IMG/VR virus record: IMGVR_UViG_2690316115_000021
Strand: one strand, 5' to 3'
DNA length: 17,088 bases
From: a virus
Lineage: Duplodnaviria; Heunggongvirae; Uroviricota; Caudoviricetes
A program made the position numbers. Shown one piece after another: positions 6,001-12,000 of the stretch; position 1 is the first letter of the stretch; each line of letters opens with the position of its first letter.

Positions 6001-9000
6001 ATTCTCGCCTTTCTTCACTACGGACGGTTTCAGGCCGGTGGCGCTGGCATTGCGGAAAACGTCGCTCCCCAGAGCACTTTTTTCATCCGTGAAATAACGG
6101 TTGTCCGGACGCACCTTTTCAATGCGTTCTGCTGGTCTGGACGCACCACTCTCGTTAATTTCAATACGAACTTCATCCGGATCGCGGAACCGCACCGTCG
6201 GGTAAATACTCCCGTCGCCATCATCCGCATTTTCCGGCTGTGGCTGTGCCTCCGGTCTGGCCTCCCGCTGAGGGCGAAGCACATCACGTATTGCCTGTAA
6301 CTGCTGCTCTTCAGTATCAGTACGCCCTTCCTTCTGGCTGAGTTTTCGGTATTCCTCAAGCAGTTCAGGGCGCGGCTTCGCCTTCAGCTCATCCATCACC
6401 GCCTGTCGCTTCGCCTGTTCATCCAGTTCATTCAACAGCTGGCTGGCGGCTTCCCGGCGATGAACGGCAGACGTGTCTCCCTCATGTGCCATATCCGCAT
6501 CAGCATACTGTTCCAGAAGCTGCTCGCGATTCATCCCCTGCATAGATTCACGATGCTGTGCCACCGGATCAACCGGTTCGGGTTGCGGAGCCGATTCGTC
6601 CTGAGGAACGCTTTCAGCCTCACGCATGGCTGCTTCATCTGCCGCCTGACGTTTTCCACGATATCCGGCAGCCGCACCGAATGGTGCCCCCATTGCAGCA
6701 CCAAGGGCTGCACCTTCGATCGTTGCGTCAGCCACGCCCTCCCACGGTGACACATCCATTCCGGCGGTCTCACGCAATGCCGTGTTTTCCTGATAGCGTG
6801 AATAGCCACCCTGCGCCGCATTAATCGTCCCCTGTTCCGTGGCATTTCTGACAATGCCGCTTTTAACGGTCTTCGCCGTGCCCCGCATCGCCAGATTAAG
6901 CAACTGAGCATCGCCCAGTTTTGCCGCCATGGCATTCACAGCCAGCAATTCAGGATCGGTTGCCAGTTGCGCACGCACCTCATCGGCAACACGCTCTTTT
7001 GCCAGGTCCATTTTCTGGCGGTCAGTAAGCTGCGCGTGCTGCGGATCTGCATCAATTGACAAAAAGGTCTGCTGAAATTTCGGTGACTTCGCCAGCTCAG
7101 AATAATCCGCGTTAAGAACAGCATCTGCCGCTGCCATTGCACTCCGCCCTTGCGCACTGACAGTGGAATGGGTGATCAGGCCTGCCTGGAAAAAATCCGG
7201 CATTTTTTTATCGACAGCTTCGGCTGCCAGTGCTGTGGCTCTTTCCGGCTGCATCCCTGCCGCGATGTATTTTTTCTCCAGCCCGGCGGTCAGCACTTTT
7301 CGCAGAGTGACATCACCCAGCTTTTTAGTCACACCGCCTGCAACCATATCCGGTACAAGCGCACCAATCAGGTTAACCCCTTTCGCTACCCAGACCGCTG
7401 AATCATCATATCCTTCAGTCATCGGTGTATTCAGCGCCCGCTGCGCCCCCGGCGACATCTTGCCAGTCAGCCATTCATCCGAGGCTTTAGCGCCGCCACT
7501 GACTGCCTTGCCTGTGACCTTCAGACCTTTACCGACAGTATCAGTAACCGCATTTTTTCCATCAGGCAGAGTGTCGATGACCTCATCCGCCCCCTTGCTG
7601 CCACCGACAAAAATATCCTGAACAGTTGCTACTCCCGGCAGCCCCATACGGCTGAACTCATTTAAAATACGTGCCCCTGTTTTTACCGGGCTCTGAATCA
7701 TCGCATCACCGAGTCCACGGGCCATTTCCCCTGTCCCCCGGACGGACTGGGCGACACCTTTCCCCATAGTTGGCAATACATCGCCCAGGCTGAACGACGT
7801 GCTGTTGTCCTTCCAGCGATTGGGATCGGAGAAAAACACATCATAGCTGTCAGTCTCTCCCGGCTGCTGAATGTTCAGGCTGTTGCGGCTCTGGTTGCCA
7901 AATTGCGCTTCAGGGCGCTGTTCATCGGAATAAGCCATACAGACTCCATAAAAAAACCCGGCACAATGACCGGGTATCAGGAAATAGTATTAACGGGAAT
8001 GGTGAATTACTGCGCGTAATTCTGTTTCAGACCACGGATAAACTCAGATGCAGAGGCCGCGCTATCATCCCTGGCCTGTTCCCCCCTGGCCTTTTGAATA
8101 CGGAGAAAATTCGCATACCCGTGTTCCAGCAATTTCTGATTCTGAGGCTCCAGCATTTCTGGCTGACGGGAGGCCACTTCTCTGGCAAATGCCTGCTTAT
8201 CCGGATCATCACCCGCCCAACTGGTAATCCCTTGTTGAATTTTTTGCTGCTGAATTTGCTGCTGATACTGCGGCAGTCCCATCGAAGCATAATATTGCGT
8301 CACTGCTCCCTGCGCATCACCGCCGTCCTGTGCAACCTTTATCGCTACCTGGCTGGCTCCTTTCTGAAGTTGATCCGCAGAAAGTCCCTGCTGCTTCGGC
8401 GTGAAATAGCCGAAATTTTTCGAAATTTCCGCGAATTTACTGCGATCCCTGACAAGCTCAACAGCCTTATCAACAGGCACCGCCAGCACGGTTTGATCAT
8501 CAGGATGTGCACTGCCGTATTCCGTAACGGGTTTATGTGCTGTAGAGCCATCACTGTATGTGAGATCAAGGCCGATAAGTATGTACCCTTCCTGCTGTGC
8601 CGGTACTATACTGCCAATCCTGGCCTCTTTTATCGTCTTTTTCCCGGTTGAATCGGGCATGCCAATACGCTGTTGCAGTTCCGGGCCAAACACCCCGGAA
8701 AGGACATCAAGATTCTCCGGCGTATTAAGTGAAGCGATAGCCCTGTCTGGCTTGTCATCAAAGATTTTTTGCAGGTTGTTCACGGCCTGACCCGCTTTCG
8801 CTACATAGCCATCATTCGCCATCAGCCTCAGCGGATTACCCTCTGACAACTGGCCGTAAAGACGCATTGCTGCATCCCGATCGCCAGCATCCACAGCCTT
8901 TCCAAGCGCCGCCATCACAGGCTGATCGCGCGCCAGCATATCGTTATACTCAAGCCGTCGCTGGTTGTATTTCTGCATCCGGAGTCGCTGCTGCTCCATA

Positions 9001-12000
9001 CCCAGCGACGCATTCCGGTAATTCTGGTTGGCGTTAAACTCCCTTTCCTGCAGTGCATAATTACGGTCGTCGACTTTGGCTCTGTAATCAAAGTTCCGCT
9101 GATCAACGTCTTTATTATGTTCAAACTGCGACTGTGCAAATTCAAAATCGCGCTCGTTATTTTTCTGTTGTTGAGCAAGCTGTGCTTCTCGCAAACCAAG
9201 TTCCTTACGACGGGTCATTGCCTGGTCAACCGTGCTGAATCCGGCAAGTAAACCCTGTGCAAATCCGCTCATTCACCACTCCTTAAAACAAAGAACCAGC
9301 AATACCACCTATGACAGCACCAATAGCCGCACCGGGGAGACCACCAACAGCAGCGCCCATAGCTGCACCCGTACCAATTCCCGTGCCGATATTCTGTTTG
9401 TTCTGCGCTTTCTGTTGCGCCGCCATCTGTTTGTTCGCGGCCTCAATTTCTTCACGTCGTCTGTCGGCATCACTTATTCCCTGTAATACCTCACGCCTCG
9501 ACTGATTCGCAATATCCAGTAAACCGTATCCCATATTGCCCCCTTACGCTGACACCAGTTTTCCGCCAACACTCAGTTGTTGTCTTGCAGGTGCAGAAGC
9601 CCCCGTCAGTATGTTCATCTGGCGATCCTGCTCTGCTTCACGGATACCATTTTTCGCGCCAGCAATTGCCAGAGCATTACGCAAACCCAGTGTGTTACTG
9701 TTGGGATTATCCGGGCGGCTTACCCCGTATCTCGCCATCTGGTTATCCTGCGCCATCTGCGCTGTACGGAGACTGGAAGTGGCAAGGCCGCCCACCCGGG
9801 CAAGCTGGGCACTCATCAGGCTGTTGTTCTCGCCAAGGTCAGCCAGCCTTGCCACGCGGGGCAAATATCTGGTTCGCCAGTCGTCGTATTGTTGGCGTGT
9901 CAGCGCTGCTGACGTCTGCCAGTCACCCTGTGGACGGGCAGCTCCGGTATAACCGTATCTCGCAAGTGTTTCGTATTTACCGTACTCCATAATCACAGTC
10001 TCCAGTTCTGAGCCTGATGCTGAATGGCATTAGCGCCGGTGCCAGGTGTTTTAGCACCGCCACTTCCTCCGCTACCGCCAGCCTTATACATCGCATATGC
10101 ACCTACCGCACCCAAACCAGCGCCAACAAGAGAGGCTCGCCCCTGCTGTTTCGTAAACGCAGCCTGTGCGTCCGATTTAGCTTTTACCAGACTGCTGTCT
10201 GCCAGCGAGTTAAAACTCTGTAACGCATCCGCCTTTTGACCAGAACCGAGAGCAGCAACATCCTGTAGCCCGGCAACATACTTATCTGCCTGCGATACCT
10301 GCCCCCGTGTGGTTGTGTCAATCTGCCCGGTTACCTGATCACTCTGGTTCGCATTCATTACCGCGTTAAAGCGACCACTGGACGGGTCAACACCGGACTG
10401 AGCAAGATTACCCGCCAGCTCCTTCCGTGCTTCGCCAAACTGTTTCTGATACCCCAGATTTGTGGTGCCAGCAATATTGTCGTACTGCTGCTCACTGTTC
10501 AGGTCATCGACCTTTTCCATGAAGTTATCTTCAGCCGGGCGGAGGATTTTTTGATAATCCTGCCACCCTTTCCAGGCCACTTCTTCCTGTGCTATTTGCG
10601 CTGCTGTTGGTTTTACTTTGGTATCACCACCGCCTTTTTTTCCGCCCATTATGGCCCCCTGGATAACAAAAAACCCTGCCGGGGCAGGGTCAGAATGTGA
10701 ATTGCAATTGGTTTACACACGATAATGAATACAGTGGCAGTCAGACCGCTATCCTGAACACCATGAAGCCATCCTCATCATCCGGCATTCGCTCAAAGCC
10801 CAGACGTTTTCCCAGCCGGATAAATCCCCGCCTTGCCGTGTGGAATTCAGCCCAGCGTCCGCCAGCCAGACGGGTTAATGTCTTCACCTCCGGCAGATAA
10901 CGCTCAACACCGGCACTCCCCGTACACACACCCAGCAACACCAGAACATAAGGGATACCGTCGTCACTGAGCACAGAACGCAGCACCAGAAAACCATCCG
11001 GTGCCTCAAAGCAAAACGCCTGCTTTTTAAGGCAGGCGTCTTTAACTTCATTCATAAATTCAGGGTTGCGGGAATTTCTCACAACACGCTGCATATACCG
11101 GAAAATTGTGTCGTCCATTCTCTCACCAGAAACGGGTGCCATATCGGCTGAACCTCAGCAACCAGTTGACGGGGACTTTCGTCCCCGTCGCGGTTTTCCT
11201 ACTGCTTACACTGTAAGAACGCCGCAAACTCCGCTCCCCACAAATTCAGCCGGAACTCACACAACGAGCCGTGTAACATCCAGATGGTGAAGATTACCGT
11301 CATACAAATTGTGACGGTGATGAGCGATTTTTGCGACATAGCGCTTGCCTCCTGAGTGGAGAGGCGCTAACCTTCTACTTGCTTAAGGTATGATGGTTAG
11401 GGCCTCGGGTTAAACAAAATGTTTGACTCGGGGCCTTTCCACATCAGGCCTTCAGGTTCTCCCTCCAGCCATCAGCCGAAAGGCACCCGCGCATAATCTA
11501 CGATTTTTGCCCTGCACGGGCAACAAAAAACCCGCCATCACAGCGGGTTATGACATGTTGTCGGGTATTACTCAGAATTTCAGGCCAATGCCTGCAAATA
11601 AACCATCAGTTTTCCAGTCGCCAGAGCCTGAGCTTTCATAAGTGACGTCCATAGTAACACTTTCATTGAAGTTAAATTGCGCGCCGACAGACCATGCAAT
11701 AGACGTTTTTTTGGTGCTGTTACTTTCAGAAAAACTACCGGCACCATGATTAAGATTGTCGTTAATTTTCAAGTCAGTGGTGACTTTTGCAACCCCCATA
11801 CCAGCCATTGCATACACACTGAGGTATTCGTTAAACCGCCACGAAGGACCGGATAGTAGACTCCAGTAATTAGCCCTGATATCAGTTCTCGCTGAAGCTG
11901 CCGGTTTTTTTACCTCTCGTGATGGATCGGAAGGCTTAACATCAATAAATGCCTGCGCATTAGTCATGGAGCGCGCCCATGTAAAAGAGGCTATAACACC

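Follow-up and report, generated by a model that had tools for sequence, protein, structure and literature searches.

Gene layout of the module

The stretch of DNA analysed here (the window; 17,088 nt, IMG/VR record IMGVR_UViG_2690316115_000021) is the late region of a short-tailed Shiga toxin (Stx) phage (Sepvirinae; 933W/phi24B type), and this report concerns four small genes within it, designated A to D, which precede a giant gene. All long open reading frames (ORFs) of the window lie on the minus strand. Four genes of 218, about 148, 83 and 421 amino acids (aa) had been predicted within nt 8007–10649, and these ORFs were confirmed: gene A (nt 10649..9993) encodes 218 aa, gene B (nt 9990..9544) 148 aa when read from its ATG, gene C (nt 9534..9283) 83 aa, and gene D (nt 9272..8007) 421 aa. 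They are the orthologues of phi24B gp51 (vb_24B_44), gp50 (vb_24B_45), gp49 (vb_24B_46) and gp48 (vb_24B_47), respectively, and are followed by the giant gene (nt 7938..1), which specifies a polyvalent protein of 2645 aa, the orthologue of phi24B gp47. A Shine-Dalgarno motif stands before every start (GGGGG for A, GGAG for B, AGGGGG for C, AAGGAG for D and GGAG for the giant gene), in line with the strong ribosome-binding sites of the original prediction. The genes abut closely, with gaps of 2 nt (A–B), 9 nt (B–C) and 10 nt (C–D), and 68 nt separate D from the giant gene. The overlaps that had also been proposed are confined to an alternative GTG start of B at nt 9996, which overlaps the stop of A and is unlikely because it lies 3 nt from the Shine-Dalgarno motif. 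A to D are real genes and not chance ORFs, since near-identical orthologues have been verified by peptides, and all four match PHROG profiles (E-values of 1e-42 to 1e-201).

The 2.9 kb around the module show 93–95% identity to 186 phage records, all of which carry the module. Essentially every one of these records is a short-tailed Stx phage of the Sepvirinae (e.g. GER2, 75/02 Stx, 933W, VT2-Sakai, phi24B). Annotated relatives have, in order, the portal, capsid, adaptors, lateral fibre, nozzle, central needle, a pair of small genes and lom, after which come a small hok/mok-like gene, a 133-aa gene and then the module, labelled as four 'hypothetical' genes (one of them 'bacteriocin') and a ~2800-aa 'LPD5 domain-containing protein'. 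The genes are already known as hypothetical ORFs, and their products are listed in one supplementary table. No function for A to D has been proposed in the literature searched, and neither a phi24B expression study nor a 2025 proteomics paper on enterohaemorrhagic Escherichia coli phage mentions these genes.

Terminators had been predicted on both sides of the four genes, and a pattern scan combined with RNA folding did find a terminator-like hairpin with a T-run at either end, on the minus strand. The upstream hairpin (nt 10691–10672; 8 bp, -14.6 kcal/mol, z -4.07) is placed between the accessory genes lom and orf133 and gene A, and is identical in phi24B and 75/02 Stx. The second (nt 7975–7956; 7 bp, -11.6 kcal/mol, z -2.17) lies within the gap between D and the giant gene, where its T-run adjoins the Shine-Dalgarno motif of the latter, and it too is kept in phi24B and 75/02 Stx. 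What did not hold is the notion of an independent operon: a pattern scan of nt 7700–11400 gave no sigma-70-like promoter, so that A to D do not form a self-contained operon and, having no promoter of their own, would be made late, within the long late transcript. In lambdoid phages this transcript is produced by a Q-modified polymerase, which reads through internal terminators. In lysogens, the most plausible role of the upstream hairpin is to stop transcription of the accessory genes lom and orf133, while the conservation of the D/giant hairpin in Sepvirinae suggests a role in the expression ratio or in message stability; speculatively, it may lower expression of the giant gene or stabilise the upstream message. 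A similar hairpin of unrelated sequence occupies the same D/giant position in Vibrio phage 1.205.O (locus L003, nt 16930–16955). Scans of the window for Rfam families and tRNAs gave no hits.

Virion content and sequence features of the proteins

Proteomic data are available for phi24B, whose proteins are 96% (A), 96% (B), 92% (C) and 83% (D) identical to those of the window. A 2026 preprint reports cryo-electron microscopy (cryo-EM) together with proteomics of one purified phi24B sample (bioRxiv 10.64898/2026.04.10.717836, the source of all phi24B virion data given here). About 40% of its particles were empty. In the whole-virion digest, 82 spectra were assigned to gp51, 83 to gp50, 6 to gp49 and 179 to gp48, alongside 101 for the portal and 746 for gp47; gp49, the orthologue of C, gave 13 spectra in all, 6 of them from the batch digest. 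In the gel, gp51 and gp48 each show a sharp peak in one slice, the behaviour expected of a discrete band. About 27 copies of gp51, 44–48 of gp50, ~37 of gp48 and ~23 of gp47 per virion were calculated, these being crude values derived from spectral counts and normalised to portal = 12. The supplement enters the structure-based abundance of gp47, gp48, gp50 and gp51 as 'ND', and none of gp48–gp51 is in the cryo-EM model. The main text proposes an ejection role for gp47 only and leaves gp48, gp50 and gp51 undiscussed, while gp49 was set aside as a contaminant because of its 'bacteriocin' annotation. Lom contributed 6 spectra, and lom and bor-type accessory envelope proteins were present in trace amounts (bioRxiv 10.64898/2026.04.10.717836). 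Virion mass spectrometry, which had been suggested as a check, is thus positive by way of the phi24B orthologues: those of A, B and D are clearly present in virions, at roughly portal-level abundance or above, and that of C is faint.

Protein A begins with MGGKKGGG, carries a conserved GVDPxSGR motif and has a weak glycine-zipper segment at residues 172–190 (hydrophobic peak 1.04), followed by a 28-residue polar tail. B is polar, rich in Q, N and R (24.3% Q+N+R), and has no hydrophobic segment. C consists of a charged N-terminal helix and a glycine zipper of ~35 residues that reaches the C-terminal SLF, with eight overlapping GxxxG motifs in residues 50–80 and a hydrophobic peak of 1.71 (segment 47–83). 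D has a conserved N-terminal hydrophobic peptide, SGFAQGLLAGF, a stretch with 40.7% Q+N+R (residues 30–115; 23.3% over the whole protein) and an alpha/beta domain with an invariant TYxDGS motif. Of the two proteins said originally to end in glycine zippers, C does so; A does not strictly, because of the polar tail that follows its weaker segment. The single Q/N/R-rich protein of that description can be recognised in D, but B is equally rich overall. A membrane-inserting segment is predicted for C at residues 47–83 and, more weakly, for A at residues 172–190. Met-Gly starts are seen in A, in C (MGYGLL), in the Aeromonas phage versions of B and D, in a 277-aa protein of Ralstonia phage GP4 (MGGKGGG) and in gp62 of Burkholderia phage JC1, and conservation of the glycine-rich N-terminal peptide of A extends from phages of E. 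coli to those of Ralstonia.

Each protein matched a PHROG family of unknown function nearly end to end: phrog_611 for A (E 1e-118), phrog_596 for B (E 2e-82), phrog_594 for C (E 5e-42) and phrog_601 for D (E 7e-201). A additionally matched phrog_8003, 'virion structural protein' (E 4e-8). No named function was returned for any of them by Pfam, NCBIfam or PHROGs, and these searches, together with profile searches of PDB, bear out the original statement that no named family could be given for any of them. For A, B and D, Pfam and PHROGs show no scaffold or tape-measure homology, and the glycine zipper of C is the only part of that protein to touch tape-measure PHROGs (E 0.002–0.005 over ~45–65 residues). 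Neither of the two findings that had been named as contrary to the original prediction, clear scaffold or tape-measure homology and absence from virions, was made. There are no signal peptides in A to D, and Pfam and NCBIfam gave no enzymatic or known anti-defence domains.

The name 'bacteriocin', given to C in RefSeq, was rejected. C scores 19.3 bits against Pfam Bacteriocin_IIc (PF10439; cut-off 27.1) and narrowly fails membership of Gly-zipper_YMGG (PF13441), with 26.7 bits against a gathering cut-off of 28.9; nothing in NCBIfam exceeds the cut-offs for A to D, including any bacteriocin model for C, and the N-terminus (MGYGLLDIANQ) lacks a double-glycine leader. Judged by its sequence, the label is an artefact of composition. 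The counterpart of C in Aeromonas phage phiARM81mr carries the same label. For gp48, the orthologue of D, an early preprint spreadsheet gives 'Transcription factor?', which was traced to a GenBank note; no family match supports it and it was also rejected.

Structure prediction was of limited help. For A, AlphaFold2 (AF2; 121 sequences) gave no confident monomer fold (predicted local distance difference test, pLDDT, 38), and the model was unusable for fold searches. D was predicted (150 sequences, pLDDT 63) to be mostly helical, with the conserved N-terminal peptide disordered, one Q/N/R-rich helix from residue 17 to 128 that would be ~17 nm long if straight, a small alpha/beta unit around TYxDGS, and a helical C-terminal domain (pLDDT ~80). 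Foldseek searches with this model found nothing in PDB and only its own orthologues in BFVD, and AF2 predicted no channel-like fold for A or D. The only matches of A, B and D profiles in PDB, to eL13 (E 0.027) and to a 19-residue Rib-like 'TYxDGST' motif (E 0.15), were put down to chance or to a shared motif. Proteins that fold only as oligomers after ejection typically give poor monomer predictions; the AF2 results are compatible with ejection proteins, and go no further than compatibility.

Conservation, the giant partner and the absence of cysteine

In phage genomes, tblastn searches placed homologues of A and D ~2 kb from each other in a group of Vibrio phages of ~60 kb, and also detected a homologue of A in Aeromonas phage phiARM81mr. 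The complete block, A-B-C-D-giant, has sizes of 201/117/77/442/3130 aa in Vibrio phage 1.205.O and 212/124/85/466/3190 aa in phiARM81mr. Counterparts align at 20–50% identity (D at 20–25%; B, assigned by position, at 47% in Aeromonas and 22% in Vibrio), and in these phages the module directly follows the tail genes, in a structural block without accessory genes around it. A scan of IMG/VR returned 80 loci, of which ~37 are distant (A ~50% identical), and in the latter B, C, D and a giant ORF occur in the same order and with the same spacing wherever the contig continues. Co-conservation of the four genes with the giant gene, which had been suggested as a check, is seen in the Aeromonas and Vibrio phages and in the distant IMG/VR loci, and A to D are always encoded with a giant virion protein. 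An exhaustive profile search found 790 cluster representatives (50% identity clusters) of the A family at E ≤ 1e-3, a number that falls to 353 at E ≤ 1e-10, with lengths of 185–260 aa in nearly every case, while word-indexed protein searches gave relatives from E. coli, Aeromonas and Plesiomonas only, among the top 120 matches listed. In one IMG/VR locus (L082, IMGVR_UViG_2585427777_000018, nt 8001–8288) A is cut at codon 77 and runs straight into the giant gene, B, C and D being absent; this looks like a deletion in a decaying prophage.

More distant relatives of A were found in phages of the same virion lineage. GP4 is the closest structural relative of phi24B (bioRxiv 10.64898/2026.04.10.717836), and the portal, capsid and nozzle of both GP4 and JC1 are homologous to those of 933W and phi24B. 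The A profile matches the GP4 277-aa protein (hhalign 94.9%, E 5e-8) and JC1 gp64 (hhalign 95.1%), and all three share an MGGK(K)GGG N-terminus, a G(V/I)(D/N)PxSGRF motif and a C-terminal glycine zipper. On this profile and motif evidence, A is a true homologue of both. Mass spectrometry of CsCl-purified JC1 virions detected gp64, gp67, gp68 and the 4515-aa gp69 (PMC9144972). The hydrophobic peptide of D (SGFAQGLLAGF) recurs as GAFAQGLMQGM in JC1 gp68 and GGFAGGMSQGL in a 509-aa protein of GP4.

The giant protein of the window belongs to the large polyvalent proteins, which unite several LPD domains and MuF-type or peptidase domains in a single chain (Iyer et al. 2017). Its Pfam matches (LPD38, 164.8 bits; LPD5, 149; LPD1, 81.5; MuF_C, 64.2) are all above the cut-offs, with E-values of 1e-17 to 3e-48, and it also has a zincin-type HEWFH motif and glycine-rich hydrophobic segments (e.g. 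residues 407–425 and 2301–2319). Proteins of this class are predicted injected effectors (PMC5512222). The orthologues in 75/02 Stx and phi24B have 2793–2811 aa, compared with 2645 aa here, where the stop codon occupies nt 1–3 of the window; BLAST identity to these orthologues is patchy, 84–97% over parts.

A to D and the giant protein together contain no cysteine in 3515 residues, whereas six neighbouring genes encode 19 in 1667 residues. If cysteine were as frequent as in these neighbours, the chance of finding none would be ~3e-18 for the five proteins and 5e-5 for A to D alone. The module has 0 cysteines in 4077 residues in phiARM81mr, 0 in 3967 in the Vibrio phage and 2 in 3677 in phi24B, while in the Aeromonas and Vibrio phages the structural genes outside the module have 19–24 per ~3500 residues. 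The module genes of GP4 and JC1 likewise encode none, and the acetyltransferase and phosphoadenosine phosphosulfate (PAPS) reductase genes interleaved with them have 3–5. Cysteine suppression has been described in the gp71/72/73 ejection operon across 191 N4-like phages, and passage through the oxidising periplasm was given there as the explanation (PMC11445570). Among arguments available from sequence alone, the absence of cysteine is the strongest for the exit of these proteins from the capsid through the envelope. As a cheap marker it could flag ejected proteins in other phages.

The central tail needle (nt 13305–14573, minus strand; 422 aa, Phage_Tail_Tip domain) also lacks cysteine, against 8 in the adjacent nozzle, as would fit a needle that likewise enters or crosses the envelope. 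The 133-aa gene (nt 10741–11142, minus strand), located between lom and the module, has 3 cysteines and no family match. It is conserved in Stx phages but has no counterpart in the Aeromonas and Vibrio forms of this region, so that it is probably another accessory gene. The G+C content drops from ~52–55% to 42–43% over nt 11500–13500, which cover lom, a 208-aa gene and a 92-aa gene, and this suggests a block acquired from elsewhere. The phi24B counterparts of the 208-aa and 92-aa proteins (gp54/gp55) have been proposed as needle-tip receptor binders (bioRxiv 10.64898/2026.04.10.717836).

A possible ejection module and its relation to known systems

A to D are probably internal virion proteins that are released at infection and assist delivery, that is, an ejection-protein module. 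This reading is supported by the presence of the orthologues in virions but not in the cryo-EM model, by the conserved gene order, by the homology of A to virion proteins of JC1 and GP4 and by the absence of cysteine, and it agrees with one of the two possibilities raised in the original prediction, a podovirus-like internal or ejection module. The T=9 head would contain them together with the giant polyvalent protein and, once the central needle is released, they would leave through the 22-nm tail. Crossing of the periplasm in an unfolded or only partly folded state would account for the total lack of cysteine, and in the cell envelope the proteins would assemble into a conduit, an extension of the short tail through which the DNA and the ~300-kDa giant protein, which would follow them out, could reach the cytoplasm.

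The allocation of specific roles within such a conduit is doubtful. Glycine zippers are classic channel-forming packing motifs, and on that account C (helix and zipper) and the C-terminal zipper of A are the candidates for insertion into membranes, where they may line a pore. D might bridge the periplasm, given its N-terminal hydrophobic peptide, its predicted ~17-nm helix, its helical domains and the ~37 copies of its orthologue, and could be the counterpart of T7 gp15, P22 gp20 or DEV gp72; B may be a soluble partner. A wider proposal, less likely than not, is that A to D represent a separate and widespread trans-envelope delivery family, serving the ~300-kDa polyvalent effector and the genome in T=9 short-tailed phages of the 933W/GP4/Bcep22 kind, unrelated in sequence and fold to the ejectosomes of T7/P22/N4, and using glycine-zipper subunits as membrane pores.

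A number of points weigh against an ejection module. The location of A to D inside the capsid is deduced from their absence from the cryo-EM model, and the copy numbers are, as stated, crude. No internal core or portal ring was reported in phi24B (bioRxiv 10.64898/2026.04.10.717836), and C is barely detected in virions. A has a weak hydrophobic segment, none of A to D was matched to an ejection protein in profile searches of all PDB sequences, and hhalign gave no homology between B, C or D and their positional counterparts in JC1 and GP4. In addition, many deposited Stx2a phage genomes have D split after about codon 84 by a 1.26-kb insertion sequence (IS) of the IS3 family. With tblastn, 337 places were matched in 289 records, from which about 48 records are estimated to have D in two pieces. 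Either the prophages concerned are defective or D is not needed, and the split gene offers a natural knockout that bears on whether D is essential. The IS element within D of Stx2_EH1965 (locus L087, LC616032.1, nt 1728–4260) contains ORFs with HTH_Tnp_1 and rve domains.

The same virion data would also accommodate proteins that are carried in the head as cargo, or that serve there as packaging helpers, organisers or chaperones for the giant protein, and build no conduit, perhaps being delivered to the cytoplasm, e.g. against host defences. Co-conservation with the giant gene, the similar abundance in virions, the lack of any predicted channel-like fold and the membership of the giant protein in a class of predicted injected effectors (PMC5512222) are all in keeping with this. 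However, the zippers of C and A and the hydrophobic N-terminal peptide of D are difficult to reconcile with effectors or chaperones that act purely in the cytoplasm, neither enzymatic nor known anti-defence domains were detected, and a short-tailed phage needs an envelope-spanning extension for which no other candidate genes are evident. P22 gp14, an assembly factor of ejection proteins, does provide a precedent for a helper. The explanation is regarded as unlikely. It is more improbable that A to D are external or tail-associated parts (flexible decorations, a tail plug, or needle-tip or receptor-binding accessories) blurred by averaging. They are indeed in virions and absent from the model, and unassigned density at the needle tip as well as several unresolved flexible parts were reported (bioRxiv 10.64898/2026.04.10.717836), but that density was attributed to gp54/gp55, the products of different genes, and three proteins at ~27–48 copies would be expected to show as density on the outside. 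The absence of cysteine and the membrane-type segments fit envelope transit, and the genes sit with that of the giant internal protein, after the tail genes.

The second possibility of the original prediction, a membrane-associated system of the cell, was not favoured by the data. In that case A to D would be a bacteriocin- or microcin-like, superinfection exclusion or lysis control system contaminating the virion preparations, as suggested by the RefSeq name of C and its weak resemblance to class II bacteriocin and Gly-zipper families, by its treatment as a contaminant in the preprint, and by the neighbouring lom and bor-type products, which are envelope proteins and are also found at trace level. 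All of the family scores are below the cut-offs, however, and no double-glycine leader, signal peptide or promoter is present. Furthermore, A, B and D reach portal-level abundance or above in virions, where Lom gave 6 spectra, and the Aeromonas and Vibrio modules lie inside a structural block without accessory genes, and we consider this the least credible of the explanations.

The ejection-module reading, if correct, has several consequences. Short-tailed Stx phages, which bind BamA, spread Shiga toxin genes between E. coli strains, and if A to D are the missing parts of the conduit they would be concrete targets against the transmission of Stx phages. A function would be gained for hundreds of genes annotated as 'hypothetical' or, misleadingly, as 'bacteriocin', and virion mass seen by mass spectrometry but not modelled would be explained. 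The module would also be a tractable model for the delivery of giant polyvalent proteins.

Among the closest known systems are the blocks of Bcep22-like and GP4-like phages, i.e. JC1 gp64/66/67/68 with the 'DarB-like' gp69, and the 277-aa and 509-aa 'virion-associated' proteins of GP4, whose genes precede a 3224-aa giant gene. Unlike the module described here, these blocks are interleaved with accessory genes (N-acetyltransferase, PAPS reductase), of which GP4 has two, and the annotation of their proteins stops at 'virion-associated'. A likeness of another kind, and the one suggestive hit of the PDB profile searches, is seen with cargo protein 1 of crAss001 (gp45; PDB 7qog), whose residues 120–150 match C at E 0.023 over 32 low-complexity residues. 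Its N-terminal glycine zipper is nearly superimposable on that of C (GASVGGPIGAIVGG vs GASVGGPLGAVIGAG), and gp45 is a capsid-internal protein of a short-tailed phage that is thought to be ejected, but it has 842 aa with a large helical body. From the sequences, this likeness is at the level of the motif and is no evidence of common descent.

The ejection cluster of the N4-like phage DEV, gp73-gp72-gp71 (equivalent to N4 gp52-gp51-gp50; PMC11445570), resembles the module in its organisation. In both cases a co-oriented cluster closes the structural genes and ends with a giant (>2600 aa) protein carried in the virion, preceded by a small membrane-inserting protein and a largely helical protein of ~420–520 aa; cysteine is strikingly absent, and the phage is short-tailed with a T=9 head. 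No similarity in sequence or fold was detected, however, and four small genes are found here rather than two. The giant protein also differs, being a polyvalent LPD/MuF_C/zincin protein in place of the N4/DEV RNA polymerase. For DEV, pore currents and a nonameric tube are on record, whereas the present module is known from sequence and orthologue proteomics, with no portal ring reported in phi24B.

The order small-medium-giant is shared with T7 14-15-16, P22 7-20-16 and DEV 73-72-71, and, like the module, the T7 and P22 genes follow the tail and needle genes. P22 gp7 (229 aa) and gp20 (471 aa) are similar in size to A, with 218 aa, and D, with 421 aa. The role expected of the T7 and P22 proteins, to lengthen the short tail across the envelope, is the same as that proposed for A to D. 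As for differences, profile searches of all solved structures gave no homology to the T7 and P22 proteins, the large member is here 2–4 times bigger and has effector-type domains, and the internal core stack of T7 is not seen. Ejection proteins as a kind are well known, and the module described here differs from them in its family, in the number of its parts and in its giant polyvalent partner; if its proposed function is true, it would be a third or fourth unrelated solution beside those of T7/P22 and N4.

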